From positions 62,001 through 121,448 of the forward strand of contig MFPR01000041.1 in assembly GCA_001784175.1 (NCBI GenBank): DNA of 59,448 bases, written 5' to 3'. Below are positions 41,201 to 59,311 of the stretch, in pieces. Below the pieces are notes generated by a model. That model searched no databases. It was not told the origin of the DNA and saw nothing but the letters and a program-made list of their open reading frames with translations. The DNA comes from Candidatus Lindowbacteria bacterium RIFCSPLOWO2_12_FULL_62_27 (GTDB lineage: Bacteria; Lindowbacteria; 2-12-FULL-62-27). Numbering within the stretch: position 1 is the first letter of the stretch; every line of letters begins with the position of its first letter. A program made the position numbers and the translations under genes.

Positions 41201-42836
41201 CCGATATATTTTTAACTACATTCAGTATCCCACCCCCGCGCCGTCCGGCATGGATTGGCTGATCGACGGGCTCAAGTACTATTCGGACGCGGAATTGAGC
41301 GATTTGTCCAAGGAATGCTCTCTGCCGGGATCGATCAAGACCATCCGCGGATGGTTGGAGGATCCGATGACGTCGACAGAAACGGTACGGTGGAGAATCA
41401 AAGGATTCAATTATTCGGATGCGAAGAAGGAGAAACTCCTCCTCGAGGTCGACGCGTGGGTCGCCACGGTGGATACATCGACCAAGGCCGCGTATGACGC
41501 GAAGGCCAAGGCGGCGAAAGAGGCCGAACAAGCGGCGATGGATGCCAAGATCGCCGACGTGACCGCCAAATCGGAGATGCGCATTTCGATCACGTCCCTG
41601 TATCAGAGCATATTGTACCGGGCGCCCACGGCGATGGAATTGGCAAACAACGAAGGATATTTTGCTTCTTTCGGTCTCGCCGATATCGCCAACAGTCTAT
41701 TGACGTCGGACGGATTCAAGAATCTATCCGCCGCCGAAAAAATTAAATCCCTGTACCGATTCATTCTGCGGAGAGACGCCGATGCGGACGGAACGGCGTA
41801 CTACGGCGCGTCGGGCAAGTCGACCGCTGAAATCGCCAAGGCTCTGTATGAAAGCGATGAACACAAAAAACTCGCGGAGGATAAAAAGACGCTTATCAAA
41901 GATGTGCTTACAAAGTACGGAGTCAATTTGAGCGCATCTTCCGCGGCAACGACAACTGCAATGACAACCGCTACAAGTTACACCCCGTCCGCAACGAACC
42001 TTGCCAAAGGCAAATCCGCGTCCGGCAGTGCGGCCTGCGGGACGAGCGAAGGCCCTGAAAAGGCGGTCAACGGAACGTCGAGCGGCGGCAATTCCGACAA
42101 ATGGTGTTCGCTCGCTGATCAAAAATATCTGGATGTCGATCTGGGCGCGTCCTATTCCATCACCGAATTTGTCGTCGCGCACGCGGGCGCGGGCAGCGAG
42201 GATGCGTCGTTCAACACGAAAGACTTCTCCTTCTCGGTCAGCGCGGACAAGACGACGTGGACGGACATTTTGACGGTGAGCGGAAACACAAGCAACGTAA
42301 CGAAACACGCGGTTCAGGGCACAGGACAATATGTCCGGTTGAACATCAAGACGCCGACCCAGACAACGGACAAAGCCGCGCGAATTTATGAGTTCGAAGT
42401 CAACGGCACGATTGTCCCGGCTGTGTCCAACCTCGCCAAAGGAAAAACAGCGACCGGCAGCGCCAGTTGCGCCTCGTCCGAAGGGCCCGAAAAGGCGGTC
42501 AACGGGAGCAAATCGGATAAATGGTGTTCGAAGGCGGATCAGAAATTTCTCGAGGTCGACCTCGGCGCGCCGTACTCCATCACGGAGTTTGTCGTCGCGC
42601 ACGCGGCCGAGGGCGGAGAGGGCTCGTCGTACAACACAAAAGATTTTAAAATCTCGGTCAGCGCGGACAAATCGTCTTGGACCGAGAGTGTCAACGTGAG
42701 CGGAAACACCAGCAATCTCACGAAACATGCGGTTACGAACACGACGGGCCAGTATGTTAAATTGACCATCACGACGCCGACCCAGACGGCGGACCCGGCC
42801 GCGCGCATTTACGAGTTTGAGGTGATCGGACGATGA
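32223..42836 (+). CDS. Giant 3537-aa secreted protein: five ~330-aa beta-rich repeats, helical region, Ig-like domains, DUF4214-like domain and two F5/8 type C (CBM32) domains
   Basis: Signal peptide ending PALA; repeats start GKW/GDW about every 990 nt; LYRFILRRDADADG; two NLAKGK.A..S...KWCS...VDLG...IYEFEV domains. Confidence 0.85.
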   Translation: MNRSRKRIRANRAPALLFLLLIAFPALAADITGRALVPLKDGSQAYVFLLNNYDRTRDGEIYVIVTSGGTRTAYKPQENILDAPAQKGSWGVKLRGDVQISMVEVVLYGNPPAPVSAPVLALPPALAGKWTLSDRMAGALTLKLEAEGDAAKGYTLTGKASVKDAGEFAVTGTWNPAKPSAPLIIETSNVFKQLLEGLLGQSYPADAFSLGEKITAIINLPTEWTAQLKKGIKSQDDLKAFSAGQVAVGIAVPFTLKIDPTKPAFNLMARINPVAKTVSLSLGAGQKWDKPFDFLPVSFDQIALTTDFKFESLNAKAAGNIEFFGLIPVDLDMITLKGMKPDLKLTIKPDVNILIGALGKLEIPVELKDIFLPVLNKLEFGTFNLGGLGDLGISGKLPSLKMDFKIKTLHFDRTFNLDMPEFSFRKPALFIAELGKIVLPELKANFDIILADLAFDGLIGKWTLADLSIDVGSIKVTAEGDPMAGYDLACAITVKDVGTMNAVGKWSPAAPLAPVTFHVDNIFKSAFEGLLGGAYPSEAFSLDEKIDVTVGLDPNWVEQLKKGSKGATTIKTGTYTLVAKMPFKLKLDPMKPMFNLTATIDAVAKTVAVGLDEGQKWDQPFDFLPVTFDKIDLTSDFKFESLNAKAAGNIEFFGAIPASLDMITLKGMKPDLKLTIKPDVNILIGALGKLDIPIELKDIFIPLLDKFEFGAFELGGIGDLGISGKLPSLKMDFKLKLPNFEHTFKLDMPEFNFRKPDLFTAELGKIVLPVLQANLPDITMGLALELATGKWPLVDLNIDLVKLKLDAEGDPTKGFTLDGVITVKDLGDFKVNGLWGKDDPSKVVFDVDNAAQSVLDATIGKAVPKDWFKMGDKITVTATLDKEWSDQLTKGAKAANPFDKGNFTVDISFPLTLKFDPTKDAFKLTAHIDPQAKTATIGLDAGQTWSDPFGYLPVTFTQIDMASDVKFSKIAMTSTADMTFIKPIPLKLDATIANGAVTNFKLIVTPPADFPSAVLNAMKIPGNLSLSLDDVKWALDEILKNIKMGEITISAPDFNAKVADIGLKFSVDLPSWKYDFDFKAPGVNLKNLDKFYVDFGNYVVPVLVANFDKITAGLIFKGIAGKWPLGDVDLGIASANLEAEGDPTKGYTLTGKITVVEAGDFTINGFWSPSTPLDPINFKADNLFKTAMDKRLDQLVPKDWIKLDEKINIKVGLSESWVNKLQRGGRADAKTPAAGGDKFTLEVSMPLKMILDPKKPPFNMTASYQPLNDVISLSLDDGQVWEKPLDILPVRFDKLALGADPSLTTLTVNTSGKLDFLVPCDVVLVMETKKGAAPSYTVNLKPAAGTNIVKAILDGRVPPASLALVNGLLPNTVVEEISVAMDATKSKPDIRLKFTMSKESLSQTFDILVKEADMSNSGDFSAKAAPQILDQLSGGTIGAATTELLDKLGLSGDWTIIDLNIASQLILKVNVKGSPAKGYDITSDIKPLVFDQFKLTGRWDPAKPADPVTLTADKNVFKPVFDKTIGKQLPTGWMVLKDELFVVITFPSAITDALTSGGSAGAGATTGADGIDMEIGFPMELKIDPTKEKRLDMIGSVLPMKSQAQLALAAGQVWDKPFGFVPATFNTFTAASDPSFTQITIHGEGTSDFLEGEKIDFKIDIVSVQGQKPTLEINATPTPGMAKAMMKKANIPASLQDCIATIELNKIDMSADFSSVINGVVPYCKLSFTLNHPLAGRLNIDVGLPAGDMKDPAGFAKTVAENVVSQLENIVSQVVGNVSKKLENAAKDPVGTAKDLANTAGNTAQDIAASTKDFFKDPGRNTVDLAKNAAKMAEDLGKQVVSNVTAKLEKIAEDPIGAAIEAAQAAYDAAVSVANSIADFFSDIGSAIVDFFGGGDDGPSDEEIAAQEAADKAKADAQKKLNDLYIEQMNKRIAEILRNADFENCKKAIAAATTMQEAEKIAYNDFQPAYSHLLNSDKTQLYEEVKKKAMSIAPPPSESMAWWRNKMSDAEIWWLDDGIKFIDGKEFPNNTWFSNVSGLSAADKAALKSEMKAKQPAKLLKWQTKYIRDYREGMDWAFTIQDVLNQIEWINNDIMNRLNQDQVADLKKYADAAIARVNAAWLEKFTDQINGASTEYRLYEVQSDMEISYNLTAPQKAVLKKKIAALLPNIKTQGPINAMRNMEKRIAEEMNFAVLKGLDERLTAGPLEMPFAANSVEDVITQIKLSHDDALDADLSVLSDDSKEILGGLIRQRIYSLRGIHDAVVNVQLKRISNMMLGSEIELLSYQIDGRAAPDLSYLGDDNKKKLRDEIQKRFNQAPIRQKAFDEMYLAIDNAATWADLTKLQDALSGKSVEGLPVILNLTELDIERLTERVTEKLDVINTELKKFRAGIAAATTNADIKSWKGKIDENKSLAADQKKALKDEADAKFAELAAKELKSMQDGITAATTSADISTWEWSIDNSDLLTADQKKTLKSQSKAKRIPLLISYPFDQTMDIANLNRWKGMLNGTAIDRYPVTLDYLKEPEVTMIKENILSLTADQKAGYLKTIEERLVIANKEREEYVAAAKAKTASLTKYAELVEHKDHIKTSSGLPDDIKATLTGEVDVKIQSLFGAELDGYMATFRSALVDADGMSSEKRTLRLKAIEDYLNGYYASLTGLPNIKFMTADQIAMMKKEVALAKNPPSATDRAAVVKKYTDAIAAAKDEAAIKTLKAQIESDSTLLWSDKYPLIGSINAKTVMKLTMPENVKVGKEIRLNISGGWAPFKYELERNRSGASFVGDVYKTGSFATAMNEMGNIIVVTDATGQTQKANVRTIAGITVSPSGKTSVMAGGSITFTAPGGVGTPSFSLDPNNSNGFINEQTGVYTAGTGKSNVEDGIKARDFDFNSDVVTVFVYPKPTAQVSDDRAKTFRDRLAAANSVEAAELVKTELNADTLLTQEKKAELIKEADARASLPDLKEKAQKEALANFPKKLKDWIATESSADRLDVVGRYIFNYIQYPTPAPSGMDWLIDGLKYYSDAELSDLSKECSLPGSIKTIRGWLEDPMTSTETVRWRIKGFNYSDAKKEKLLLEVDAWVATVDTSTKAAYDAKAKAAKEAEQAAMDAKIADVTAKSEMRISITSLYQSILYRAPTAMELANNEGYFASFGLADIANSLLTSDGFKNLSAAEKIKSLYRFILRRDADADGTAYYGASGKSTAEIAKALYESDEHKKLAEDKKTLIKDVLTKYGVNLSASSAATTTAMTTATSYTPSATNLAKGKSASGSAACGTSEGPEKAVNGTSSGGNSDKWCSLADQKYLDVDLGASYSITEFVVAHAGAGSEDASFNTKDFSFSVSADKTTWTDILTVSGNTSNVTKHAVQGTGQYVRLNIKTPTQTTDKAARIYEFEVNGTIVPAVSNLAKGKTATGSASCASSEGPEKAVNGSKSDKWCSKADQKFLEVDLGAPYSITEFVVAHAAEGGEGSSYNTKDFKISVSADKSSWTESVNVSGNTSNLTKHAVTNTTGQYVKLTITTPTQTADPAARIYEFEVIGR

Positions 42837-43768
42837 GGCGCCGGATTCTCGTCGCGGCCGTCGCGCTTATGGTGCCGTATTCCGCGTGGGCGGGATCGCG
42901 CGCCAAAGACGCCGCAACCCCTTTCGGCGGGAACAAGAACCCCACGAAGGCGGATGTTGTGCGCGTCGTCGGCGACGCGACGCGCAAGACGGCGGCGGGG
43001 ATGACGGACAAACTGGCCGGCGACTACAGCGCCTTTCTCGTGGGGGCGGCGAACGTGATGGATGACAGAAGAATCGTCAAGCCCGCCTATCGCGACGTGT
43101 TTCTCTCCACGCAAAAAGATACGGTGATCAACGCGATGCTGAATTCCTACGACACCTTCGCCGCCGCCACGCTGTCGGCGTGGATGAAAAAGGCGCCGGG
43201 ACTTCGGTGGACGGTTTCCACCGCGCTCCAATCGGAACGCGACCGCCTCGTGGACTTTTTCCTTCAGGAACCCGAGTTGATCATCCGAGTTGCGCGTTCC
43301 GTCCAGTCCTCGCGCGCAAAAGCGGGACTCCATCCGGATTCAGTGCCGGACGTCATCCGAACGAAAGTGGATGAAGCCGCCGCGGCGGACACGCAGGAGA
43401 ACTTCACGCGCCTGCTCTACCGCGCCGCCGCGCTCGGCGACACGGAAGTTGGGCGGGCGATCCGCGGGCGAGTCCGGAGACTTGCGACGGACCTGACGGA
43501 CGGCCTGACGGCCGCCTACGTCAAATTCCGCGTGGAGTTCGACGCGACGCTGACCGAAAACAAAATCACCGACACCGCCGTGCGCGGTTCACTGTTTCGC
43601 CCGAAAAGGGCCGACGTTCTCGCCGCGCTGATGAAACAATACGACGCCTTCGCCGCCAAAACCCAATCCGCCTTCAAAGCCGCCGGCCCGGCCGTCCGGA
43701 GCGCGGTCGCGGACGAGCTTGCCGCCACGCGCGAGAAGTTCAACGCGACGTTCAAGGCCGAACAATGA
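42833..43768 (+). CDS. Secreted alpha-helical protein with internal duplication (paralog A)
   Basis: Signal peptide; two copies of Y..F.V......KI.....R..........ML..YD.FA; ATGA overlap with the upstream gene. Confidence 0.7.
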   Translation: MRRRILVAAVALMVPYSAWAGSRAKDAATPFGGNKNPTKADVVRVVGDATRKTAAGMTDKLAGDYSAFLVGAANVMDDRRIVKPAYRDVFLSTQKDTVINAMLNSYDTFAAATLSAWMKKAPGLRWTVSTALQSERDRLVDFFLQEPELIIRVARSVQSSRAKAGLHPDSVPDVIRTKVDEAAAADTQENFTRLLYRAAALGDTEVGRAIRGRVRRLATDLTDGLTAAYVKFRVEFDATLTENKITDTAVRGSLFRPKRADVLAALMKQYDAFAAKTQSAFKAAGPAVRSAVADELAATREKFNATFKAEQ

Positions 43769-44379
43769 AATATTCTCGAAAAGTCCCAACGGAAAAATCC
43801 ATGATCATGCGCCCTGTCACCGCTGAGATCGAGCGGCGGATTTTTACGATTCGCGGGCGGAGGGTGATGCTGGACGCCGATCTGGCGAAAGTGTATGGGG
43901 TGACCACGGCCAGATTGAACGAGCAGGTGAAGCGGAATCCCGATCGATTCCCGCCGGATTTGGTGTTCCAAATCACGCGCCGGGAGTGGGCTGTTTTGAT
44001 ATCGCAATTTGCGACATCAAAGATCCGCGGCGGCCGCAGAAAACTTCCTTATGTGTTCACAAAAGATGGAGCGGTGATGATCGCAACTGTCCTCAAGAGT
44101 CCACGTGCAGCCATGGTCACACTGCAGGTTGTACGGGCTTTTAATCGCATGCAGGCCATTTTGGATACGCATGCGGACATCGGCATCAAGATACGAGAAC
44201 TCGAAAAGACCATCAGCCGGAAGTTCCGAAAACATGAAAAGTCCATCGAGATTATTTTTGGCGCGCTGAATCAATTGATGAACCCGCCCCAAACGCCCGT
44301 CGTCGGGTTTGTCGTTGACGGGGGCGACAAAGACAATTCCTCTCTTGGACGAAGAGACCGGAGGCGAAAATCCAAATGA
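43765..44379 (+). CDS. ORF6N-domain DNA-binding protein
   Basis: IRGRRVMLDADLAKVYGVTTARLNEQVKRNPDRFP, GGRRKLPYVFT and a C-terminal coiled coil ending in VGF. Confidence 0.9.
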   Translation: MKYSRKVPTEKSMIMRPVTAEIERRIFTIRGRRVMLDADLAKVYGVTTARLNEQVKRNPDRFPPDLVFQITRREWAVLISQFATSKIRGGRRKLPYVFTKDGAVMIATVLKSPRAAMVTLQVVRAFNRMQAILDTHADIGIKIRELEKTISRKFRKHEKSIEIIFGALNQLMNPPQTPVVGFVVDGGDKDNSSLGRRDRRRKSK

Positions 44380-45320
44380 ACAGACATAGCTGGTTGCTGG
44401 GTCGACGGGGTCATTCTGACACTTTGACACTTTCGACTGCGGTGCTCATCCTGTCGTTGATCGTGCTGACCGGCGCTCCGGCTCTGGCGGCGGATTCCGC
44501 GCGGGAGTTGCGCGACCTCGTGACCGGGACGCAAAACTCCGCGACCGCGCTTGCGGACAAGACGGCGGAGGACTTCCTCGCTTATCTCGTCCGCGTGAAC
44601 GCGTCGCTGGACGAAAAGAAAATCACGAAGCCCGAACACCGCGCGGCGGTGATCGCCCCGGCGGCGAACGAGCTGGCGGACTCGATGCTCGCCGAGTTCG
44701 ATGCGTTCGGCGTGAAACTGCTCGCCGGGTGGCGCAAGAAAGCTCCGCAGTTGTCTCCAATCGTATCGGAGATGCTGGACGACGAAGCGGACCGCCTGAC
44801 CGAGTTTCTCCGTGCCGATCCGATGATGTTGGTCAGCCGCGCCGCGCGCACGTCGCGGTTGAGGGTTCAGGAACCGATCCGGCAGGGCATGGAATCGATG
44901 GCCGCCGCGGTGGAAGCTGCCGATTCGGGCCCGGGATTCATGCGGCGGCTTCAGCGCGCTCAGATCGTGGGCGACCGCGAAGTCGCCCGCGTGGTGCGGC
45001 GACGCGTGGGCCGGGAGGCGCAAAAGGTCGGAGACCGGATCGCGGACGCGTACCTGACATTTTTCCTCGCGTCGCAGAAATCATTGAATGAGTCGGCCAT
45101 CTACGACAGCGCCGCCCGCCGGTCGATCCTCGAGCCGCAATCCAAAGCCGTGTCCGACTCGATGCTCGCCGACTTCGATGCCTTCACTGTCGCGACCAAG
45201 CAGGCCTTCGCGGGCGCCGGCGAGATCGTCCCGGTCGCCGCAACCGCCGCGCTGGACGAGGGCGAAACGCCCGACGGGAGCAACATCCGGCGTGCGCTGG
45301 ACATGCAGGCGAAAAGGTGA
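44376..45320 (+). CDS. Secreted alpha-helical protein with internal duplication (paralog B)
   Basis: Colinear with 42833-43768 (e.g. KKAPGL/KKAPQL, DRLVDFF/DRLTEFL, LGDTEVGR/VGDREVAR). Confidence 0.7.
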   Translation: MNRHSWLLGRRGHSDTLTLSTAVLILSLIVLTGAPALAADSARELRDLVTGTQNSATALADKTAEDFLAYLVRVNASLDEKKITKPEHRAAVIAPAANELADSMLAEFDAFGVKLLAGWRKKAPQLSPIVSEMLDDEADRLTEFLRADPMMLVSRAARTSRLRVQEPIRQGMESMAAAVEAADSGPGFMRRLQRAQIVGDREVARVVRRRVGREAQKVGDRIADAYLTFFLASQKSLNESAIYDSAARRSILEPQSKAVSDSMLADFDAFTVATKQAFAGAGEIVPVAATAALDEGETPDGSNIRRALDMQAKR

Positions 45321-45327
45321 AGACGCG

Positions 45328-46086
45328 ATGAGGCCGGCGATCCTTCGCGCGCCTGTTTCAGCCCTTCTCCTCGCCGGCGGATTCGTCTTGTTCGGACTCG
45401 CCCGCAGCGCGGACGCGGCCATGGCCATGCCGGCGTCCGGAGGCAGGCCGGGCTTAGGCCGGGGTGCGCTGATCCTTTCCAGCCTCGCCCCGTTTGCCGA
45501 GCCGGCCGGGGACGAGGGCGCGATGTATCTCGTGAGCGCCGGTCCGATCAAGCCGGGCGTGACCCTCGGCCCGGACTCCCGGCCCATCACGCTTATGGCT
45601 GCGCAGGCCGTTGGCGTGGCCCGCGCGACGGGCAATCCCAAGGCATACACCATCCAGCCCGGCGAATTCACGTTCAATACGGAGGGCGCGATCAGCAAGG
45701 CGTTTGGGGACGCCGTCATTTCCTTCGTCGACGCCGCAGGCCAATCGTCCCTGGTCTTCGATGGGACCGAAATCGTGGCGCTTGCGATCGTTCCGGTATC
45801 GGCCGGCGCGGCGCAATATCAGGAAAAGCTGAATAACACGAAGGCGATCGCGGCGCATCCGGAGAACGACCCGGTCACCGTGACGATGACCCCCTTCGTC
45901 CAGCCCGGCGGGAATACCTTCGTGTTCTCGAACATCACCGTCACCTACGCCGGCGTGGAGTTCTTGAGAAAACACGAGTGGTCCGTGTCGCTGAGAATTT
46001 TCGGCGGCCTGAACCTGAAACTGATCGCCGAGACCCCGCCAAACTCGCTCAAATTCATCTTCCTCCCGGGAGAGCCCCAGCCGTGA
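45328..46086 (+). CDS. Hypothetical secreted beta-rich protein
   Basis: ATG 7 nt after the previous stop; signal-peptide-like N-terminus. Confidence 0.65.
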   Translation: MRPAILRAPVSALLLAGGFVLFGLARSADAAMAMPASGGRPGLGRGALILSSLAPFAEPAGDEGAMYLVSAGPIKPGVTLGPDSRPITLMAAQAVGVARATGNPKAYTIQPGEFTFNTEGAISKAFGDAVISFVDAAGQSSLVFDGTEIVALAIVPVSAGAAQYQEKLNNTKAIAAHPENDPVTVTMTPFVQPGGNTFVFSNITVTYAGVEFLRKHEWSVSLRIFGGLNLKLIAETPPNSLKFIFLPGEPQP

Positions 46087-46252
46087 AGAGGACATTCGCG
46101 TCGTTTTCTCGGAGCGATTGTAACAAAGCGGCGTCCTCTGCATTCCCCGCGGCGAATTTTTGAGGACGATTCATCCCCTCAAGAAATTGACTCCTTCGGG
46201 AACTCGACAACCTCAGCCCGGCGATGATATGTAAGGTCTTGAGCATGGAAGC

Positions 46253-46294
46253 GAGCCCGTAGCTCAGTCGGTAGAGCAGCGGCCTTTTAAGCCG
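46253..46294 (+). pseudogene. 5' half of tRNA-Lys(UUU), truncated after the anticodon arm
   Basis: GAGCCCG-TA-GCTCAGTCGGTAGAGC-A-GCGGC-CTTTTAA-GCCG gives the acceptor 5' strand, D arm and anticodon arm. No T arm or 3' acceptor strand follows. Confidence 0.8.
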
Positions 46295-46336
46295 AGTCCG
46301 TGTATCTGAATATCCAGGCAGCGCGACTATAATCCT

Positions 46337-46365
46337 TTGACATGCCCCTGGGAGTAGGTTACAAT
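46337..46365 (+). promoter_or_regulatory. Sigma70-type promoter upstream of the AAA ATPase
   Basis: TTGACA (46337-46342), 17-nt spacer, TACAAT (46360-46365). Confidence 0.75.
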
Positions 46366-46397
46366 CTGGATATGTCAATTCCAATTTGCGAGACAAA

Positions 46398-47558
46398 ATG
46401 GAAGTAATCAACCGATTCGTGTCAGAAGCCGGGCAGAGCTTTTTCCTGTTCGGTCCGCGGGGAACGGGGAAGTCCACATGGGTCAGGCGGCGGTTCGGCG
46501 CCGCGCTTCGAATCGACCTTCTCGCGCCGGACGTTTTCCGCGAGTACAGCGCCCGGCCGGAACGCTTAAGAGAGCTGGCCGCGGGGAACCCCCGCGCCCG
46601 GGTGATCGTCATCGACGAGGTCCAGAAAGTCCCTGATCTCTTGGGCGTTGTTCACGGGTTGATCGAGGAAAAGCGGGGCCTGCGTTTCGTGCTGACGGGA
46701 TCCAGTTCCCGAAAACTGAAACGCTCCGGCGTGGATCTCATGGCCGGCCGCGCCGTCATCCGGACGATCCACCCGTTCATGGCGGCGGAACTCGACAACC
46801 GGTTTCATTTTGAAAAGGCGCTCCGGATCGGACTTCTGCCCCTGGTCTGGAACTCACCGGATCCCGCGGAGGTTTTGAAAACCTACGCCGCCCTGTACGT
46901 CCGGGAAGAGGTCCAGATGGAGGGATTGGTTCGCAACGTCGGGAATTTTTCCCGGTTCCTGGAAGCGGTCAGTTTCAGTCATGCTGCGATTCTGAATATC
47001 AGCAACCTGTCCCGGGAATGCGGGGTCGAGCGCAAGACCGTTGAGGGCTATGTATCGATCCTGGAGGATTTGCTGTTGGGATTTCGCCTGCCGGTTTTTA
47101 CTAAACGCGCCCGCCGGGCGGTGAGCATGCATCCCAAATTCTTTTTGTTCGACGCCGGCGTGTTTCGGTCCTTGCGGCCCACCGGCCCTCTTGATCGGCC
47201 GGCGGAAATCGACGGCGCCGCCCTGGAGGGACTGGTGGCCCAGCATCTGCGGGCCTGGATCGATTACCGGCGCGCCCGAAATCAGCTTTTTTTCTGGCGA
47301 AGCCGCGCCGGTCTCGAGGTCGATTTCGTCGTGTATGGCCCGGACGGCTTCCTGGCGATCGAAGTTAAAAATACTAACCGGATTCGCCCGGAGGATTTGC
47401 GCGGCCTGAAGAGCTTCAAAGACGAATATCCGCAAAGCCAAGCCATCCTTTTGTATCGCGGAACAGAGCGATTGAAACAAGGCGGCGTCCTCTGCCTTCC
47501 ATGCGATGAATTTTTGAGCGGGATTCACCCCCACAAAAAATTGATGACGGCGACATGA
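46398..47558 (+). CDS. AAA_14 ATPase with DUF4143 / PD-(D/E)xK-like C-terminus
   Basis: GPRGTGKST, VIDEVQK, LTGSS, PKFFLFDAG, WRSRAGLEVDF, AIEVK. Confidence 0.92.
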   Translation: MEVINRFVSEAGQSFFLFGPRGTGKSTWVRRRFGAALRIDLLAPDVFREYSARPERLRELAAGNPRARVIVIDEVQKVPDLLGVVHGLIEEKRGLRFVLTGSSSRKLKRSGVDLMAGRAVIRTIHPFMAAELDNRFHFEKALRIGLLPLVWNSPDPAEVLKTYAALYVREEVQMEGLVRNVGNFSRFLEAVSFSHAAILNISNLSRECGVERKTVEGYVSILEDLLLGFRLPVFTKRARRAVSMHPKFFLFDAGVFRSLRPTGPLDRPAEIDGAALEGLVAQHLRAWIDYRRARNQLFFWRSRAGLEVDFVVYGPDGFLAIEVKNTNRIRPEDLRGLKSFKDEYPQSQAILLYRGTERLKQGGVLCLPCDEFLSGIHPHKKLMTAT

Positions 47559-48736
47559 GGGCGGTCAAGGGTCAGGTCGAACTGGTCGTCCGGATGTGCC
47601 GGAAGGTCTTGGCGAAGGAAAGCGTCCACGGGCAATTGATGGAAATTTGCCGGGAAATTCGAAGACATTTCGGATTTTCGCGCGTGGTCATTTTTCTCGT
47701 CGATGAAGTCTTGCGCCAGATTCGCGGCGCGGCGGGCAGCGGTCTGCGGCTGACCTACATCCGCAGTCAGGCGTTTCCGATCGAGAACCGCGGGGGGATC
47801 GAAATCCCCAACGCGATTTCGCGGTGCGCGGCGACCGGGAGGCCGGAGACCTGCCGGCTCCGGATTGCCGACGCCGGGTATCGAAAATTTGTGCGCGGAA
47901 AATCGCCCTTGAACAGAACCTACGCGAAAGAATACGCGCTTCTGCCCCTCAAGGTTCGGGGCCGGACATTTGCGGTGATCGCGGTGTCGGTCATGGAGGG
48001 GGAAGGCACGCTCACGGACGAAACCGTCGCCACGCTTGCGTCATTCGCCGATTTCGTGTCGCTCGTGATTCTGCAGGCGAAGGAATTGCAGGAGCGGCGG
48101 CGGCTGGAGCGGGAGATCGAGTCGGTCAGCGAGCAGATCCAGCGCCGGCTGGGCCAGGATTTCCATGATGGCCTTGGCCAGGACCTCACCGGCATCCGCA
48201 TGCGCGCGGAGCTGATGGAGGAGCGCCTGAACGGCGTGTCGGCCGAGGCCGCGGCCGACGCACAACGAATTGTCAAGTTGGCCAGGCAGGCCGTCGAACG
48301 CGCGAGAAAATTGTCACGGGGGTTGTATCCGGTGACGCTCGAACGGCATGGACTCCTGTCGGCGCTACAGGAGCTGGCGGACAGCGCGACGCTGATGTAC
48401 GGCATTCGATGTTCGGTGTCGGCTCCGCGGAGAATCGACATTCGCAAGAGCACAACCGCCATTCAGCTTTACCGGATCGCCCAGGAATCGGTGCACAACG
48501 CCGTCAAGCATGGCCGGGCGGGCCGCGTGACCGTTGGACTGTTACGGCGGAAAGGCCGCGGCGTACTCGAGATCACAGATGACGGCACGGGCTTCGACAC
48601 ACACACAAAATCCACGGGCATGGGGTTGAATGTCATGCGCCACCGGGCTGAACTCATCGACGGCGAACTGCGCATCCGCGCGATGCGGCCGTCCGGCACT
48701 CGGGTGCTGTGCCGGTTCCCTCTGCCATCCAAATGA
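47555..48736 (+). CDS. GAF-domain sensor histidine kinase (HisKA_3)
   Basis: GQDFHDGLGQ H-box, QESVHNAVKH, DDGTGF, GMGL; N-terminal GAF-like region. Confidence 0.9.
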   Translation: MRAVKGQVELVVRMCRKVLAKESVHGQLMEICREIRRHFGFSRVVIFLVDEVLRQIRGAAGSGLRLTYIRSQAFPIENRGGIEIPNAISRCAATGRPETCRLRIADAGYRKFVRGKSPLNRTYAKEYALLPLKVRGRTFAVIAVSVMEGEGTLTDETVATLASFADFVSLVILQAKELQERRRLEREIESVSEQIQRRLGQDFHDGLGQDLTGIRMRAELMEERLNGVSAEAAADAQRIVKLARQAVERARKLSRGLYPVTLERHGLLSALQELADSATLMYGIRCSVSAPRRIDIRKSTTAIQLYRIAQESVHNAVKHGRAGRVTVGLLRRKGRGVLEITDDGTGFDTHTKSTGMGLNVMRHRAELIDGELRIRAMRPSGTRVLCRFPLPSK

Positions 48737-49404
48737 AAAAATCCCGGGTGCGACCCGAGTCTTCTTCCGTGCGGATTCTGATCGTGGACGATCATCCGGT
48801 CGTCCGCGAGGGTATCGCGGAACGCATTCGCCGGGAACAGGGCTGGTCGGTATGCGGAGAGGCCGAAGATGGCCCCGGCGCAATTGACATGGTCCGAAAA
48901 CGGGCGCCGGATCTGGCCACGGTTGACCTTACGCTGAAAACCGGAGGCGGGCTCGAATTGATCAAGACGCTCAAATCCATTCGCCCCAAACTGAAAGTCG
49001 TTGTGGTGTCCATGCACGATGAGGCGCTCTATGCCGAACGCGCCATCCGCGCGGGCGCCTCGGGCTACGTGTCGAAGCAGGAGCCGATGTCGGAAATCGT
49101 GCGGGCGATTCGGACGGTTCTCGCGGGCGACATCGCCGTGAGCGAAGGGTTCGGCCGGAAAGTCCTTCAGGATTGGGCGGAATCAACGCCGAAGCGCGGA
49201 TCAAAACCGGTCGAATCTTTGAGCGACCGCGAGCTGGAGATTTTGCGTCTGATCGGCGGCGGTCTCGCCACCCGGCAGATCGCGGCGGAATTGAACATCG
49301 GCGTCAAAACGGTCGAGACGTATCGCCTGCGGCTTAAGAAGAAACTGAAACTCACATCCGCCGCCGCGCTGGTCCGTTACGCCGCGCGGAACATCGAGGG
49401 ATAA
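48733..49404 (+). CDS. NarL/LuxR-family response regulator
   Basis: IVDDHPVVREG receiver domain; LSDRELEIL...KTVETYR HTH; ATGA overlap with the kinase. Confidence 0.93.
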   Translation: MKKSRVRPESSSVRILIVDDHPVVREGIAERIRREQGWSVCGEAEDGPGAIDMVRKRAPDLATVDLTLKTGGGLELIKTLKSIRPKLKVVVVSMHDEALYAERAIRAGASGYVSKQEPMSEIVRAIRTVLAGDIAVSEGFGRKVLQDWAESTPKRGSKPVESLSDRELEILRLIGGGLATRQIAAELNIGVKTVETYRLRLKKKLKLTSAAALVRYAARNIEG

Positions 49405-51798: not shown

Positions 51799-52167
51799 GG
51801 GGCCCTCCTTTCTGATATGTCTGTTAACATATCAGAATTGTATCAAAAGTCAACACCTTTTTCAAATGCGAATTTGCCCGTCTATCCGATGATTTCGATT
51901 CTGTCCGCCTGGGAAGGACTTACGGCCTTACTGGCCCCTTATTTGCGGAATCGCTGGCCTGACGGATTGGGCGGGATCAACAGTTCGAGGGATAATTTTT
52001 CATAGCGGCAAGGCATGTCAGGGATTCCCTGACATCATTATCCTCCCTTCCCTGAATTGACGGCCCCACCGCCTGAAGAGACTTTCAAATAATTTAATGA
52101 AGACCGAAATCGAGCCGTATCGTATTCGTATTTTTTTTGATACAAAGATTGAACTAAGGTACGGACT

Positions 52168-53148
52168 TTGCACAGGAGGAGAGGCCTTCTGAATACATCT
52201 AGTGTCCATGCGCCCGCCGGCTTCCTGCGGCTCGGCGCGCTTCTCGTTTCCATTCTCTGGCTGGCGGCGCCTTTTGCCGACGCCGCCGAAATCCTCTCCG
52301 GCAAACTGTCCGACGTCCGCGGCGACGTGAGAATCCAGCGGCGCGGGTCGAACATCACGTCTCTGGCGCCCTCCGGCACACGCGTCGAGCCGGGTGACGC
52401 CGTCATCACCGGCATGGCGGGCCGCGCCAGGATCGCGATGAAACATGGCGTCCTCCACGTCGATCCGGCCAGTCGGGTTGTCCTCATGCGCGGCCTCGCC
52501 GGGCGGTCCGAGGTATTCGCCGAATTCGCGATGCCGTTCGGGTCCGTGACGGCGCATATTAATATGGAGAAGGGCAAGGAACACTGGTTCGACATCCTGA
52601 CCCTCAACACGCGCGCTCGCGGCCGGGGACACAAGGAAGGGGCGCAACTCGTCGTCCATCACGAAGCCGGCGCGACGACCGTGACCGACAGCGCTTCCGG
52701 CCGGTGGGAACAACTCCCGATGATCCTGCCCAACGAGCCGCCCGCCGTTCAGGCCGTTCTCACCGATGCCGCCAACGCAACAACCTTGGTCAAAACATAT
52801 CTCGACAGTGCATTGAGCGAATCGGTGCTCCGGGCCGTGGATGTCGCGGCCCAGCCGGGCGCGCCGGATCTGATGGCAGTTCAAATCGTGCCCGCGCCGG
52901 TCGTGGAACCAGCTCCTGTCGAACCGCCTCCCGCGAAACCGGCGGAAAGTCCAAAGCCTGCGCCCAAGCCTGAACCGCCCGCGGCGCCCGCACCACAGCC
53001 GCCGCCCGCGCCAGAGCCTCCACCCGCTCCTGCGCCGCCACCACCGCCTCCGCCGCAAACGCCGCCGCTCAAGTTGACGTTGACGCCGCAAGAAGGCAAA
53101 GGCGCCGTGCTTTCCAATTCCGCGACCGTAACGTCCGAGAACAAATAA
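52168..53148 (+). CDS. Secreted FecR-like domain protein with Pro-rich C-terminus
   Basis: Signal peptide; GDVRIQRRG...L..G..V..GDAVITG..GRARI FecR-like pattern; poly-Pro tail. Start codon uncertain. Confidence 0.65.
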
Positions 53149-53149
53149 G

Positions 53150-56100
53150 ATGCGCTCGATGCTTGCCCGGAACCGCTGGTCGCGCTTCCTCATCCTGTTG
53201 CCTGTAGTCTGTTTCCTGTTGCCTTTCTTTTCGGACACCGCGCTGGCCATGCAGATTTTCGTCAAGACGCAGACCGGCAAAACCATCACGCTCGATGTCG
53301 AACCCTCGGACGCCATCGAGAACATCAAAGCGAAAATTCAGGACAAGGAAGGCATTGCGCCGGGCGAACAGAAACTGATCTTTGCGGGAAAACAACTCGA
53401 GGATGGCCGGACGCTCTCCGACTACAACATCCAAAAAGAATCGACGCTCCACTTGGTGGTGAAAAAGGCGCAAGCGCCGGCCGGGAATCTCAAGATCAGG
53501 CTGTGGGCCTACGCGGGCGCGACGGTAAGCGCCGCGACGTCCGGCGGCGTCCCGCCTTACACATACTCGATCTCAACCAATAACTCCGGCGCGGCGATCT
53601 CCTCCGACGGCCTCTACACGGCCGGGCCGACATCGGGCGTGAGCGACATCATCCGCGTCACCGACGCGGACGGGACGTACCTCGAGGGCGAGGTCGAAGT
53701 CCGGATCGTGCCCGCTCCGAAACTCACCATCGTCTCCATCACCGCCGCGCAGGAAAAATATAATCCGGGCGACAAGGTCACGGGCGAGATCATGATTAAA
53801 AACAGCGGCACGGCCGACGCCGATGCCGTCGTCGACCTCGGGGTTGCCAGTCCGAATGGAAAAGAATCGTACAAAATCGACAACCTGGCGGCCGCGGTGG
53901 AGAAGGGCGCCGAGAAGGCGGTCGCGTATTCGTTCGAACTCAAATCGGACGCGGCCGACGGACAATACAAGGCAAACGCCATCGCAAAGATCGGCTCGCA
54001 AACCGCCGCGGAGTTGGCCGACGTCCATGTGTTCATCGTCGTTCCGAAGCCCAAGCCCAAACCGCCGGTCAACACGGTTGCGCCGCAAATCAGCGGCGGC
54101 ACAAAGGCCGGTGAAAAACTCACGTGCGGCACGGGCGAATGGACCGGCGATCCGACGATAGAATACAGCTACCAGTGGCAGAGGGAAGGCAAGGAGATTT
54201 CCGGCGTGTCGAGCGCCGAATATGTCATCCAGAACGTGGACCCCGGCCTCGCGCTCACCTGCGTCGTGACGGCGAAGAATGATGCCGGATCGGCATCGAA
54301 GCCCGCCCAGAATTCGATCGCTGTCGTACTTGAGCCAGTCACGATCGAACCGGCGAACGTGACTCTGGAGGCGGGAGATGCCGTAACCTTCACCGGCAAA
54401 GGCGGTCGGGCTCCGTACACGTTCGAAGCTTCTAGTAAGACTATCGATGCGTCGACAGGCAAATACACAGCACCGGCAAGCTCGACAGGCGGGTCTGCTG
54501 ATATTTACGATGTGAACGTCTTCGACGACCAAAAAACCGGAGCTCGCGCCGAGGTTTATATCATTCCTCCGAAATTATCCGCTTTCATCACGACGGACAA
54601 GAAAAGTTATCTGCCGGGAGAAGAAGTCCGTGTCACAGTCACTGTCAAGAGCGCAAGTTATTGTGATTGGCAGACGTCCGTCTGGGGTATTTCTGTAAAA
54701 CAGGGTGACGCGCATTCGGGATATGGAAAAGCTGATTTGAATGGGATTCTTATTGTTCCGAAGGGTGGTGAGACATCGTACAAATTTACTTTCAAAGTGA
54801 ACACTAACGGCGTGAAATATGGCACGTATTCGGTTGCTGCGAATTTCAAGCCAACCGTTAAGGCAGACCATATCAAAGACGTACGTATCGCATTGAATCC
54901 AGACCCAGTCCAATTCGAAGTCATCGCGCCCCCGACACCTCCGGCCAACACCGAAGCGCCGAAAATTAGCGGCGACGGACTCGTGGATGGCGAGGCCGGG
55001 ATTGACGTGAAACTTACGTGCTCGACGGGCGAGTGGACGGGCGATCCGACGATCGCGTATTCATATCAGTGGACGAGGGACGGAAAAGACATCACCGACG
55101 CGACAAACGCCGACTACACGACGACCAAGGACGACGCCGGCATGAAACTGAAATGCGTCGTGACCGCGAAAAACGATGAGGGGAAGGCGGCGAAAGAAAG
55201 TTCGAACTCCGCAACCATCGTCGTTCCGGATCTGGTGATCGACCCGACGGAGGCGACGATATCGGAGGAGCAGTCGGTGACGTTCACCGCAAGCGGCGGG
55301 TACGGCAAATATACATTCTCCATCGCGGAAAACAAATCGCGCGGAAATGGGATTAAGGTGAGGGGGGCCAACAATAAATTCATCTATACGGCAGGCGAGC
55401 TGGCCATCGACAACGTGCAGGACGTGGTGGCGGTGAAGGACGAATTGGGCAAGGAGGCCAAAGCGGTTGTCACCGTAAAGCCGGAGGAGCCGGTCAACTC
55501 GGTTGCTCCGCAAATCAGCGGCGACGGACTCGTGGACGGCGAGGCCGGGATTGATGTGAAACTTACATGCTCGACGGGAGATTGGGTGAGCGATCTGGAA
55601 ATTACCTACTGGTTTCAGTGGCGTCGGGACGGCAAGCCAATCGACGGCGCGAATTCGGCCGGCTACACGACGACCCAGGACGACGCCGGCACGAAACTGA
55701 AATGCGTCGTGTCCGCGCATAACGATGCGGGGATGAACTTGAAGGAAAGTTCCAATTCGGTCACCGTCAAGGCGGCGGAGCTGACGATTTCACCGGCGCA
55801 GGAAAGCGCTACCGCGGGCGCGGTGATCACGCTTCAGGCGGCCGGCGGCGAGCCGCCCTACGAATTCAGTTTCATCGAAAACAATTCAAACGCGGAGCTG
55901 ACTCGAGACGAGGAGGCCACGGATCTATCGCCGGACATCTACTACACCGCCGGCGCGCCGGAGATGGATGTGATCGATCAGGTTCAGGTCAAGGACAAGC
56001 TCGGCGCCACCGCGGTTGCGTCGCTGACCGTCACCGCTCCGCCTCCGGTGGATAATGGCGATGGACAGGGCGAGGGCGGCGGATCCAATCAAAACGATTA

Positions 56101-59100
56101 CTATGACAACGACGGCGACGACGGCGGCGGATCCAACATCGGCGGCGGCGGGTCGAAAGGCCCCTACAAGAAGGGGGCGACGGTCAAGGCGATCAACGCC
56201 AACAATCCGAGCCAGGTTGTCACCGGCGAGATCCTCGACGACAACGGGAACTTCTTCCTCACCGTCCCGTGGTCCGGCCCGACCCTCATACGGATATCCG
56301 GCCCCTTCGTGGACGAATTCACCGGCGAAGTGAAGACGATCGACGAGCCGATCGAGGGGGTCGTGAACGCCCAGAACCACGACACGGTTAACTGTTCCAT
56401 TCACATCCCCTCGACCATCGCGAGCAACATCGTGGAGGACAAAATGAAAGCCGACCCGTCCAAAAAAATCACGCCCGTGGACGTCGTCTCGGCGAACCGC
56501 AAAGTGGGCAAGATGCTCGGCCTCTCGGGCGACATCGACGTCAGCCGGATCGACATCCGGGACACCTCCATTCCGAATGCGGAAAAGCTCCTGAACTTCC
56601 AGATCTCCGTCGCCGCCAACGCGGGAGTCGAGAAGGCGATCGAGGCCGCGAAGCAGATCGCGGTAGAATTTGCGCGGAATAAACCGGCGGGCTCGTCGCG
56701 CGGCGGCGTGGTCAAGGCGGCCGAATTGAAGAAGACGCTGGAGAATATCGAGGCGGGACGAAATATCTCCGTAAAAACGGAAAGCGGCAAAACGATCAGC
56801 GTTGCTCCGGCCACCGTCATCAAGAACGTCGTCGTGCAACGCCGGCCGCCGCCCCGGCCAGTGGCCGAGCCCGCCAAAAAGCCCGGCGCGAAGGAGAGAT
56901 TGAGCGACAAGATGGTTCCGCCCGGATACAAATATGAATTGATCTACAAGGACAATTCGGGTCAGCAGAAATCGCGGATATACAAAGAGGGCGAACGGCT
57001 GTTCGCCGACGACATGGCGGAATTCATCAAGATCAAAGTCCTGCGCGCCGATACGGCGCCGGCCGAGCCCGCCGATGCCCGGATCAACGAGGCCAAAAAA
57101 ATTCTGGCGGGAATGGCCGACGCGTTGAACAAAAAAGATGTCAGCGGCATGACCGCCCCGGTCGCGCCTGACGCGATCGTGACGATGAATGGCAGGCGGT
57201 CCGACGGCGCGGGCCTGCGGCAACTGCTCGATGCGGCGCTTCCCCTCCTGGACAATGTCCAATGGAACCTGCAAATCCAATCGGCAGCGGTCGACCCCAA
57301 AACCGGAAACGTCCGTGTGCGGGTGACGTCGTCGTATTCGGCCGAACTCATGGAACCGGTCGGCGTGACGCGCGAGTCGCTGCCGAAACCGGAAGAGGTC
57401 AAGGCCTATCAGATGCGGCTCCTGGAATCGTTGCGGTCCACTTCCGACGAAATCTATGAATTCAAATCAACCACCGCCGGCCTGCAACTGGTCGAGATGG
57501 TCTCCGGTCTGCCCTTCAGCGCCGACCTGGCCGACAAAATCTCCAGCCTCATGGCGGCGTGGCGGGTGAAAGTCACGGTGTTCGGGCTGTTCGATCATCT
57601 GGAACAGAACAATCTCGCAAAATTCTCGGAACTCATCGCTGAAGCCTTCGTCAACAACGACGACAACAATTTCAAACACAACCGCGCCGATTTTATCGAG
57701 TCCATCAAAGCCGACCTCGACCACCTCACGGCGATTGACCACGGCGTCCGCGTCGAGGACATCCAGTTCACCGCGGACCATTCCATCGCGCGCGTCCCCG
57801 TCACGTGGGACCGCCGCGCCCGCATCGCCAACACGCGCTCGGAGTGGACGGTCAAAAATCAGAAAACGACGCTGACGCTGACAAACGGCGGTCTGTTCAG
57901 GCTCGCGCAGATCGAAGGCAAGCCCCTGTTCGGCAACTCGAGCCGCCTGACGCGAAAGACCTTGATCCGCGCGGGCGAACTCGACGGCGTGACGGTGACG
58001 AAAGCGGTCGTCATCGGCGACGGGCGGGACACCGCGGCCGCGACGAGCGCCGACGTGCCGGAAATGCCGGCGGAGAACATCTCAAGCCTCAACATAAGCA
58101 CAGAGATCAGCAACGGGACCATCTCTTCCAATCCAACGGTTGATCAGACGTGGAAGGGCAACATCACGATCACCTCGAACATCACGATCCCCTCCGGGAT
58201 CAAGATCACCGTCGTATCGGGCGCTGTCATCACGCTGTCCGACAACGTGACGATTACCGTCGCGGGAACATTGGAGCCGACCAGCGCGACGTTCACGTCC
58301 GGGACAACGTGCGGCCTCACGATCTCCAGCGGCGGGACCGTGACGTCGGCCGGCACAAGCTACACATGGGGCAACAACTCGACAATCACCGTCGCGTCCG
58401 GCGGGACGGCGACGTTCACCAGCGGCACGTGGTCCATGGGCACGGGCACGACCATCGCCGCCAGCGGCACGCTCTCGGCGACGAGCGCCACGTTCAAGGC
58501 GGCCTCGACAAGGTGGGGCGGGATGACGATCGCGTCCGGATCGGCCGTGACGATCACGAGTTGCACGATGAAGGAAGCCGACACGCTCATCATCACGACC
58601 GCCGCCAGCCCGACGATTTCCAGCAACACGCTCAATCCTGTCCGGTGCGCCATCCAGGTCAAATCGAGCGGGTCTCCCGTCATTACGGGGAACACCATCA
58701 CGTCTCTGTCGGGGTCGTTCATTGCCGCCATGGCGCTCGATGTCGGCGTCAATTCTTCCGCCAGCATTTCTTTCAGCAACAACACCATCACGAAACTCGG
58801 GTCGGCCGTTCCCAATGTGAGTATCGATTACAACGCCAATATCCAGATTCGGTCGGGTTTCACCGGCACATTCACGTCCTCGGGCAACCGATTGACCGGC
58901 GATCACACCGGCGCGGTGTCCGGCACGGCGCTCAATACGTATGGCGTTATTCTCGCCACGGACGCCGGTTCGGCCACATTCACAAATGATGTCTTTAACG
59001 AGTTTGCGGTTGGACTCGAAAACCGCGGATCTGATAATGATTATACCGGCGCGGACCAGGGCATTTCCCTCACCTTCACGAACTGCGACTTCACGCACAA

Positions 59101-59311
59101 CAGATTGGATGGACTAAACGGAGGGAACGCCACCGCCGACGGTACGCCGTCCATCACGCTGACCGGCTGTTTCTTCAAGGGTAACGGCGACGACCACGGA
59201 ACACAGGCGGTCAACACGGGCACCACCGTGCCGGACGCCGTCAACGGCGCGGACGACACCTACATGGACGTGACGTCCGTCACAAATCCGCGGTCGAGCG
59301 CGAACAACTGA
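53150..59311 (+). CDS. 2053-aa secreted protein with N-terminal eukaryote-type ubiquitin domain, Ig-like repeats, NTF2-like domains and C-terminal beta-helix
   Basis: Signal peptide ending TALA, then MQIFVKT...HLV; three NT.APxISG...LTCxTGxW...YQW.RDG repeats; GGxxPY Ig-like units; Thr/Ser-rich beta-helix-like C-terminus. Confidence 0.9.
53249..53458 (+). other. Ubiquitin domain (equivalent to residues 1-70)
   Basis: Manual alignment with human ubiquitin gives 62/70 identical residues; followed by VKKAQ instead of LRLRGG. Confidence 0.97.

Follow-up and report, generated by a model that had tools for sequence, protein, structure and literature searches.

Ubiquitin is regarded as a hallmark of eukaryotic cell biology. 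Eukaryotic ubiquitin fusions (polyubiquitin and the eL40 and eS31 fusions) are cytosolic and are cut after Gly76 by deubiquitinases. Bacterial ubiquitin-like conjugation systems are cytoplasmic, with modifiers distant from ubiquitin in sequence, and the giant immunoglobulin (Ig)-like adhesins of diderms have a very long Ig-repeat stalk and distinct terminal modules; to our knowledge, no adhesin family is defined by a ubiquitin head. Bacterial ubiquitin-like pathways linked to phage defence are described as having an E1-E2-E3-type conjugation cascade (PMC10557695). The closest described systems are BfUbb of Bacteroides fragilis and BoUbb of B. ovatus, signal-peptide ubiquitin homologues reported to kill related strains (PMC11467351, PMC5705921). 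According to the first of these sources, they are imported via a SusCD-type transporter, their target is a periplasmic peptidyl-prolyl isomerase (PPIase), and the C-terminal disulfide of BfUbb is crucial for antagonism (PMC11467351); BfUbb is given as ~63% identical to ubiquitin (PMC3352274). Here we describe a gene of Candidatus Lindowbacteria bacterium RIFCSPLOWO2_12_FULL_62_27 in which a near-canonical ubiquitin heads a giant exported protein. It lies in a stretch of 59,448 nucleotides (assembly GCA_001784175.1, contig MFPR01000041.1, positions 62,001 to 121,448 of the forward strand), called the window below, where it occupies positions 53150..59311 of the + strand as an open reading frame of 2053 aa with an ATG start and no internal stop.

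This is a real gene of an uncultured diderm groundwater bacterium, and its product carries a non-conjugatable ubiquitin behind a signal peptide on a giant protein. We consider it moderately likely that the ubiquitin acts as an outward binding head. The organism is taken to be a diderm because its genome contains BamA/Omp85 and four secretins. The evidence comes from the sequence and predicted fold of the domain, from its copies in the lineage, and from a wider class of exported prokaryotic ubiquitins.

A ubiquitin domain without a conjugation tail

The ubiquitin domain spans mature residues 1-72 (53249..53464, + strand), as delimited by sequence, Pfam, AlphaFold2 and Foldseek; it has neither an LRLRGG tail nor a cysteine. 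Residues 34-103 of the precursor (nt 53249-53458) are identical to canonical ubiquitin at 62/70 positions, the reference for this count being the eukaryote-type polyubiquitin contig L058, and a HMMER comparison with ubiquitin chains of the PDB agrees (E 3.7e-37 against single ubiquitin chains). The eight substitutions are L8Q, E16D, T22A, V26I, P37A, D39G, Q40E and R42K. Pfam PF00240 matches the window protein with E 6.6e-28 and 96.7 bits (cut-off 25.4), and judged by sequence the match is far above chance. A first-pass annotation, made from the letters of the window, had counted 62/70 matches to human ubiquitin at the same codons, and the alignment bears it out. A protein search with residues 1-200 gave nothing useful, its output being dominated by eukaryotic polyubiquitins.

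The fold agrees with the sequence. In an AlphaFold2 model of the mature N-terminus, the predicted local distance difference test (pLDDT) is 90-96 over ubiquitin, below 50 for mature residues 74-81, and 72-90 in the all-beta domain that follows. Foldseek superimposes the head on solved ubiquitin structures with template-modelling (TM) scores (target) of 0.94-0.98 and root-mean-square deviations of 0.4-1.2 Å. The predicted TM score of the model of ubiquitin and the first Ig-like domain is 0.45, which means that the two domains have no fixed mutual orientation.

Residues 71-76 are V-K-K-A-Q-A instead of LRLRGG, and the chain continues for another 1944 residues. Because the tail is replaced and the domain exported, the window ubiquitin is non-conjugatable and forms a head that stays at the N-terminus permanently. 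Sequence and fold place it in the ubiquitin family, but it is without the feature that makes ubiquitin a modifier. All seven ubiquitin lysines are retained, as are I44, H68 and V70, while position 8 is Q; no cysteine occurs within residues 34-200.

Directly ahead of the domain stands a Sec-type signal peptide (53150..53248, + strand; 33 codons in the translation) with four basic residues, a hydrophobic core, and A-L-A at positions -3..-1 relative to ubiquitin Met1. Signal peptidase I most likely cuts after A-L-A, leaving ubiquitin Met1 as the mature N-terminus; this is predicted from the -3..-1 rule and from the same junction kept in relatives. The residue pattern and the recurrence of the junction in 7/7 copies agree with the earlier proposal of a signal peptide abutting Met1. 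The protein database holds a 2050-aa form of the window protein that starts at the second ATG.

Copies in the lineage and integrity of the locus

The genome (4.39 Mb in 44 contigs, 94% complete) has three PF00240 matches: one in the window gene, one in a gene of contig C39 that encodes 2109 aa, and one in a gene on contig C9 that is shorter and diverged. Two of the three other genomes of the same family carry the domain (two copies in G001, one in G003; two sister genera), and it was found in 0/37 sampled genomes from other families. A seventh copy of the cassette, on metagenome contig L091, was found via the gene directly upstream of the ubiquitin gene (gene A), in a metagenome scan that gave at least one confirmed locus among the 597 pattern matches listed. 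In 7/7 copies, a signal peptide ending small-x-small leads straight to ubiquitin Met1, and behind the ubiquitin come a short linker, which varies, and an Ig-like domain bearing the motif G-G-x-P-P-Y; an LRLRGG tail occurs in 0/7. Signal peptide, ubiquitin and first Ig-like domain are a conserved N-terminal cassette.

What follows the cassette differs from copy to copy, with long Ig arrays in the C39 protein and, in L007, sugar-binding domains of the F5/8 type C. Without ubiquitin, the window protein's middle module is found in P0124 (1433 aa) and as a separate gene right after the C39 ubiquitin gene; together with the C-terminal part it is 44-59% identical to P0124 and its paralogues on C29, C26, C39 and C3. 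These genes are a lineage-specific family of modular giant envelope proteins, in which several cassettes can take each other's place at the N-terminus, the pair of ubiquitin and first Ig-like domain being one of them.

The classical L8-I44-V70 binding patch of ubiquitin is changed in 3/6 near-canonical copies (L8Q in the window, L8A and I44K in C39, V70E in L091), and F4, K6, T12, T14, K29, K33, K48, R54 and D58 are invariant in 7/7, the diverged copy included. With the patch altered and other residues invariant, any partner would be read through other faces of the domain. The diverged copy (C9:90-1052, - strand; L003) is identical to ubiquitin at 40/70 positions, and its frame stops at a TAG within 72-nt tandem repeats that continue in frame; it may be decaying, and it illustrates how relaxed selection looks. 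The same 72-nt repeats open contig C39 (L002:2-322) and lead into a gene A-type tail before the C39 ubiquitin gene; because they share these repeats, C9 and C39 are probably neighbours in the genome.

A eukaryotic ubiquitin sequence in a bacterial assembly raises the question of whether eukaryotic DNA was wrongly joined to a bacterial gene during assembly or binning. Graph contigs do break within the ubiquitin coding region (53408-53446), and some prokaryote assemblies contain eukaryote-type polyubiquitin or ubiquitin-ribosomal-protein contigs (L058, L077, L079, L084). The break is accounted for by a 39-nt exact repeat (53408..53446, + strand) that is common to the C39 paralogue and at which short-read graph contigs break; a mis-join there could at most exchange two ubiquitin-headed paralogues. 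Graph contigs from four runs in four studies cover 52000-55000 with zero differences and bridge both junctions; these runs are groundwater and soil metagenomes, each of which may be the source of the assembly, so that they give weak independent support. The chimeric junctions that the first-pass annotation named as a danger were not found: both junctions are common to the seven cassette copies, which come from three genera and one metagenome contig. Furthermore, the GC content at third codon positions (GC3) of ubiquitin equals that of the host gene, the bacterial signal peptide is in frame, and there is no polyubiquitin repeat. The gene is real and not an assembly artefact, because the same cassette occurs in seven gene copies with near-saturated synonymous divergence (dS), a ratio of nonsynonymous to synonymous divergence (dN/dS) of 0.06-0.2, and host-like codons. 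A joining artefact is very improbable, and that reading is close to refuted.

Age, origin and selection

The codons of ubiquitin resemble those of their surroundings, as first supposed from the window alone: GC3 is 0.72 in ubiquitin, 0.77 in the remainder of the gene (sd 0.10 in blocks of 70 codons), and 0.74 in the upstream gene. Among the family copies, dS over ubiquitin codons 1-70 ranges from 0.5 to saturated, and the near-canonical copies have a dN/dS of 0.06-0.2. Against every other sampled gene, the window ubiquitin has a proportion of synonymous differences of 0.52 or more, so that none of them has recent DNA in common with it. Judged from host-matching codon usage and from synonymous sites saturated against every other copy, the ubiquitin is eukaryotic in type, long resident in the bacterial lineage, and under purifying selection.

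The same holds in the wider class of exported ubiquitins described below. Of 616 GC3-matched pairs of class genes, 96% have a synonymous-difference proportion of at least 0.5, and the median dN/dS over 162 unsaturated class pairs is 0.06; as the class loci were picked as best protein matches, low dN is partly built in, while saturated dS is not. A tree of 85 ubiquitin domains over 70 columns has zero well-supported branches and leaves eukaryote-type sequences unseparated, and a single clade for six family copies is not rejected by the approximately unbiased test (p-AU 0.352). With a tree so poorly supported, the donor and the number of acquisitions cannot be told.

A wider class of exported prokaryotic ubiquitins

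The first-pass annotation cautioned that ubiquitin fusions might already be in databases, and they are. A scan with the cassette alignment, over one genome per prokaryote species, gave at least 384 confirmed relatives among 597 pattern matches listed, some of them annotated in RefSeq as 'ubiquitin family protein' or 'Ig-like domain-containing protein'. The architecture is therefore not singular. The best 80 of these at least 384 relatives were inspected; two belong to the family itself, leaving 78 class loci. Ubiquitin is detectable in 75/78, and 66/75 have a signal-peptide-like presequence ending at Met1 (70 domains), the same junction as in the window. Among the other 12 domains are some that are clearly of eukaryote type, such as the polyubiquitins of L058 and L077 and, in L079, ubiquitin fused to a ribosomal protein. 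Of the 70 signal-peptide ubiquitins, 59 head a chain of more than 60 further residues, six have 11-60 residues behind them, and five stand alone; LRLRGG is kept in 4/70.

Ten class proteins, seven from cultured isolates and three from metagenome-assembled genomes, were searched with Pfam, and 7/10 have known surface anchors, at the end opposite ubiquitin. Three SLH domains are found in two Saccharibacillus proteins and one Cohnella protein; an autotransporter beta-domain in those of Limnohabitans and Pseudovibrio, where ubiquitin is the sole Pfam domain of the passenger; IPTL-CTERM in Paracidovorax; and an S-layer SbsC C-terminal domain in Arcobacter. Adhesin-type repeats occur in the proteins from Methanothrix, Clostridiales and Synergistaceae genomes. 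Display of ubiquitin at the surface is probable in the class because the isolates carry SLH, autotransporter barrel or IPTL-CTERM anchors, and by analogy the window protein probably belongs to a wide bacterial and archaeal class showing ubiquitin at the free N-terminus of cell-surface proteins.

Members are also found on plasmids, with three matching records in the plasmid collection; the phage collection gave no match. On a Pseudoalteromonas shioyasakiensis plasmid (L097:8941-17103), beside an outer-membrane beta-barrel gene, lies the gene for a 2720-aa 'Ig-like domain-containing protein' whose N-terminus is ubiquitin-like (47% identity). The megaplasmid pRUMAL01 of Ruminococcus albus 7 encodes a 246-aa 'ubiquitin family protein' near a dockerin protein (L096:3935-4675), to which PGAP attaches ubiquitination GO terms.

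Possible roles of the ubiquitin head

The following mechanism is proposed. Gene A, which encodes an exported FecR-like protein, and the ubiquitin gene would be co-transcribed and translationally coupled. The giant protein would be exported by Sec and cut by signal peptidase I, to give a mature protein starting at ubiquitin Met1. The ubiquitin would not be released but would remain a small globular head of high stability, held by a flexible linker at the N-terminal tip of a ~900-residue Ig-like stalk bearing NTF2-like and beta-helix modules. By analogy with class members that are anchored at the opposite end, it would form the free outward end of a surface fibre. The ubiquitin itself would be the working part, a recognition or binding head for an extracellular partner, and the most attractive candidate partner would be a eukaryotic grazer or host. 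A role directed at eukaryotes is attractive because the carriers' habitats are presumably heavily grazed. The surface location of the window protein is suggested by that analogy, and a binding role for its head by the many class members in which ubiquitin is all that is displayed. Of the earlier proposal of a ubiquitin on a long surface stalk, the flexible tether to an Ig-like stalk stands in the structural model, and display is likely from the anchored relatives; the window protein's own crossing of the outer membrane and anchoring were not borne out, and the roles first offered for the head (mimic or decoy, tethered antibacterial effector, folding leader) stay proposals.

Alternatively, ubiquitin may bind nothing and serve as a leader or cap: a fast-folding, very stable domain that leaves Sec first, aids export or folding, and shields the free end. 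N-terminal ubiquitin fusions increase recombinant protein yield, a gain that fits such a role. The position also fits: in 66 of the 75 class loci with detectable ubiquitin, this domain comes first and begins immediately behind the cleavage site. The downstream bodies are mutually unrelated; the next element is a flexible linker, with no fixed interface to the following domain; and the L8-I44-V70 patch is eroded in half of the near-canonical family copies (3/6). On the other hand, members without cargo exist (5/70 stand alone, 6/70 have short tails, and in two autotransporters ubiquitin is the sole passenger domain), which argues for ubiquitin as the payload, and the nine exposed residues listed above (F4 to D58) are invariant in all seven family copies. 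We regard a mere leader or cap as unlikely, though it deserves to be kept in mind.

An antibacterial weapon of the BfUbb kind has less to recommend it. Here the head, tethered or proteolytically freed at the linker, would enter competitors and poison a periplasmic target, as signal-peptide ubiquitin homologues of Bacteroides are reported to kill related strains, and the linker behind the head is indeed exposed and disordered in the AlphaFold2 model. The disulfide described as crucial for BfUbb antagonism is impossible here, as no cysteine is present in residues 34-200; ubiquitin is part of a 2053-aa fusion instead of a small free protein; BfUbb is ~63% identical to ubiquitin, against 62/70 for the window copy; and no immunity-like or transporter gene adjoins. 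Such a weapon is improbable.

Several points weigh against an outward binding head. The window protein has no outer-membrane translocation or anchor signal recognized by Pfam or NCBIfam, the contig ending 137 nt past the stop, and it could stay periplasmic or be released. The eroded L8-I44-V70 patch appears to argue against ordinary eukaryotic ubiquitin-binding domains as partners, at least in this family. P0124 has the same middle module without ubiquitin, so the head is dispensable for that module. A dN/dS of 0.06-0.2 is common for ordinary structural domains, and selection need not target a binding surface. Finally, the 78 class loci are the best protein matches of a larger set, so that their high ubiquitin identity comes in part from selection of the sample.

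A broader and doubtful reading goes further. Bacteria of many phyla, and some archaea, might cover their cells with a protein that is nearly invariant across all eukaryotes. Exported non-conjugatable ubiquitin might then serve them generally against eukaryotes, either as a 'self' disguise or as a handle by which recognition and uptake by grazers or hosts are led astray. It might have spread by gene transfer among prokaryotes and been expanded in this groundwater lineage into ubiquitin-tipped giant fibres with a FecR-like partner.

The stalk and C-terminal half

The in-frame Ig-like, NTF2-like and beta-helix domains that had been read from the translation were found by Pfam, at varying strength (Ig_2 and MG2; SnoaL_2 below the cut-off, Beta_helix at it; DUF4440 weak). 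Ubiquitin is joined to the first Ig-like domain by a flexible linker of nine residues (53465..53491, + strand), disordered by pLDDT and, in alignments, different in length and sequence among copies. The first Ig-like beta-sandwich (53492..53704, + strand) has the conserved G-G-x-P-P-Y motif in alignments and a model pLDDT of 72-90. The stalk proper (53705..56038, + strand) consists, by Pfam and motif positions, of repeated CARDB/MG2-like domains, Ig-like domains (G-x-W-T-G ... Y-x-W) and more domains of the P-P-Y type; Pfam places MG2 at residues 204-281 and Ig_2 at 619-692, in addition to Ig_3 and fn3. A patch within the second CARDB/Ig repeat block (window 54410-55040) has a GC content of 0.46 and a GC3 of 0.44-0.63, against 0.77 for the gene, and repeat-type joints of the graph contigs are also seen at 54116-54159 and 54959-55000.

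A low-complexity linker rich in Gly, Asp and Asn (56039..56161, + strand; from the sequence) leads to the middle and C-terminal module (56132..58510, + strand), which has carboxypeptidase-regulatory-like, helical and NTF2-like (SnoaL_2/DUF4440) parts and is also present in the ubiquitin-less paralogues. SnoaL_2 scores 26.0 bits, slightly below its cut-off of 27, and DUF4440 is weak. For residues 1000-1330, the ESM Atlas returned unnamed clusters and a weak CarboxypepD_reg lead, and nothing else. Near the C-terminus is a right-handed beta-helix (58511..58996, + strand; PF13229, 25.9 bits, at the cut-off), after which no sorting or anchor signal is matched in Pfam or NCBIfam. The stop codon is at 59309..59311 (+ strand), and contig and window end 137 nt beyond it. 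When residues 1000-2053 were used as a protein query, 7996 candidates were scored, and just the protein itself and one paralogue emerged; for the C-terminal half, that database contains no close relatives of comparable length.

Gene A and the neighbourhood

Gene A (52168..53148, + strand) encodes an exported protein whose N-terminal domain is FecR-like and is followed by a proline-rich linker and a conserved C-terminal tail of 28 residues. The gene stops 1 nt ahead of the ATG of the ubiquitin gene. The start may be the TTG at 52168 or an in-frame CTG at 52189 behind AGGAGG, and the product has its own signal peptide and a conserved domain of ~200 residues. Pfam gave no direct match, FecR PF04773 being silent even at E 5. 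A profile search over 1.84 billion representatives returned four distant homologues that match PF04773 with 26.8-39.6 bits (cut-off 24), and because they pass that cut-off, the domain is classed, through these relatives, as FecR-like. NCBIfam adds a weak match to Leptospira Lsa33. The AlphaFold2 model of gene A, with a mean pLDDT of 43, is too poor for a fold search.

The tail (53062..53145, + strand) is seen in alignment as two short beta-strand-like runs around a G-K-G turn. The 4.39-Mb genome has just two occurrences of its motif, both immediately ahead of a ubiquitin-headed gene, and the codons of the tail show synonymous differences between loci. Gene A is in the same coupled position in L004, L005, L006 and L091; the tail alone is seen before the C39 gene (L002). 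The signal peptides of ubiquitin-headed and FecR-like proteins are alike, with Cys or Cys-Cys in cores of the A-x-C-C-L-L-P type and A-H-A or A-L-A at the end (window 53150-53248 and 52168-52285; C26 near 77660; C29 near 2720). This may mark a family-specific export signal.

The pairing raises a further possibility. In TonB-dependent transducers, the small signalling domain at the N-terminus is bound by FecR-type domains, and the gene A product might similarly bind the ubiquitin head in the periplasm, the pair guiding or holding the giant protein at a secretin or other envelope machine. It fits that in five loci the end of gene A lies 1 nt short of the ubiquitin gene's start or overlaps it, with the tail in a sixth; that the tail in this genome is confined to positions before ubiquitin-headed genes; that gene A is FecR-like through transitive homology; and that a paralogous cluster on C26 adjoins a giant secretin with a weak STN match. 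However, FecR-like heads also begin or precede ubiquitin-less giant paralogues on C29 and C26, which ties gene A to the gene family and not to ubiquitin, and tblastn over 86 loci found no gene A near the class members of other phyla. When gene A (residues 38-240) and the ubiquitin-Ig cassette (residues 34-190) were modelled as a complex, the score was 0.00, with no control runs, a result that weighs neither for nor against binding. Periplasmic docking of this kind is improbable.

No gene for an E1, E2 or JAB-type enzyme adjoins the locus, the neighbours being the FecR-like exported protein, a transposase, a two-component system and others. A search of the genome for E2 (PF00179) gave zero matches, the controls being equally silent, which makes this result uninformative. 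No sigma-70 promoter was found on the + strand ahead of gene A by a promoter scan, and no terminator was found behind the ubiquitin gene.

A DDE transposase gene (PF01609; 50246-51505, - strand) lies ~660 nt upstream of the gene A/ubiquitin operon, with an AT-rich spacer at 51950-52160. Window positions 43765-49404 encode an ORF6N/Rha-type regulator, an AAA_14/DUF4143 ATPase, a GAF-HisKA_3 kinase and a LuxR-type response regulator. Farther upstream (32223-42836, + strand) is a 3537-aa open reading frame with two F5/8 type C (discoidin-like) domains and a DUF4214 near the C-terminus. Genes for an NHL beta-propeller protein and an MG2-like protein stand ahead of it, and the window is rich in very large envelope proteins. 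Elsewhere in the genome, C26:95228-101917 (- strand; L095:232-6918) is a 2229-aa frame with five Secretin_N domains, a secretin domain, a weak STN match and three C-terminal HHH_3 (ComEA-like DNA-binding) motifs. This secretin is unusually large and adjoins the cluster of FecR-like/SnoaL-type giant paralogues.

Comparison with known systems

A near-canonical ubiquitin that selection maintains as part of exported proteins, both in a candidate phylum and across hundreds of other prokaryote genomes, would point to an extracellular function of ubiquitin and would imply an exchange between eukaryotes and prokaryotes that is so far unstudied. The present case brings in a candidate phylum, a portable cassette that has expanded into three paralogues, and a conserved, coupled partner gene, and the head is retained even where the classical binding patch is changed. 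The class includes cultured, tractable isolates (Limnohabitans, Pseudovibrio, Saccharibacillus and Ruminococcus albus).

Like the eukaryotic ubiquitin fusion genes, the window gene has ubiquitin in frame at the N-terminus of another protein; it differs in that the protein lacks Gly-Gly, has a signal peptide, and bears no sign of processing. With the bacterial ubiquitin-like conjugation systems it has in common the bacterial use of a ubiquitin-type beta-grasp protein, but the window protein is exported and near-canonical, and no such enzyme genes adjoin it. The giant Ig-like adhesins offer a long Ig-like stalk, the 2720-aa Pseudoalteromonas protein being a related example, and the relatives of the window protein also have carbohydrate-binding modules (F5/8 type C, in L007); the window protein itself has a Sec signal but no recognized signal of type I, type V or type IX secretion (T1SS, T5SS, T9SS), sortase or exosortase.

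BfUbb and BoUbb resemble it most, as a eukaryote-derived ubiquitin fold behind a signal peptidase I signal, extracytoplasmic and unconjugated. Placing the window protein among these BUbb proteins was considered and rejected, as it is not small or free and has no C-terminal disulfide. In the literature covered, to which supplements and most subscription journals did not belong, no signal-peptide ubiquitin fusions are described beyond BfUbb/BoUbb. Secreted bacterial ubiquitin is thus already known, while the ubiquitin-headed, multi-domain exported class is apparently undescribed. The Bacteroides proteins, as their sources portray them, are small, free, ~61-63% identical to ubiquitin, disulfide-dependent, and known from Bacteroides only; the window copy is identical at 62/70 positions, cysteine-free, and fused into a 2053-aa protein, one of three paralogues, with a conserved partner gene, in a groundwater candidate phylum.

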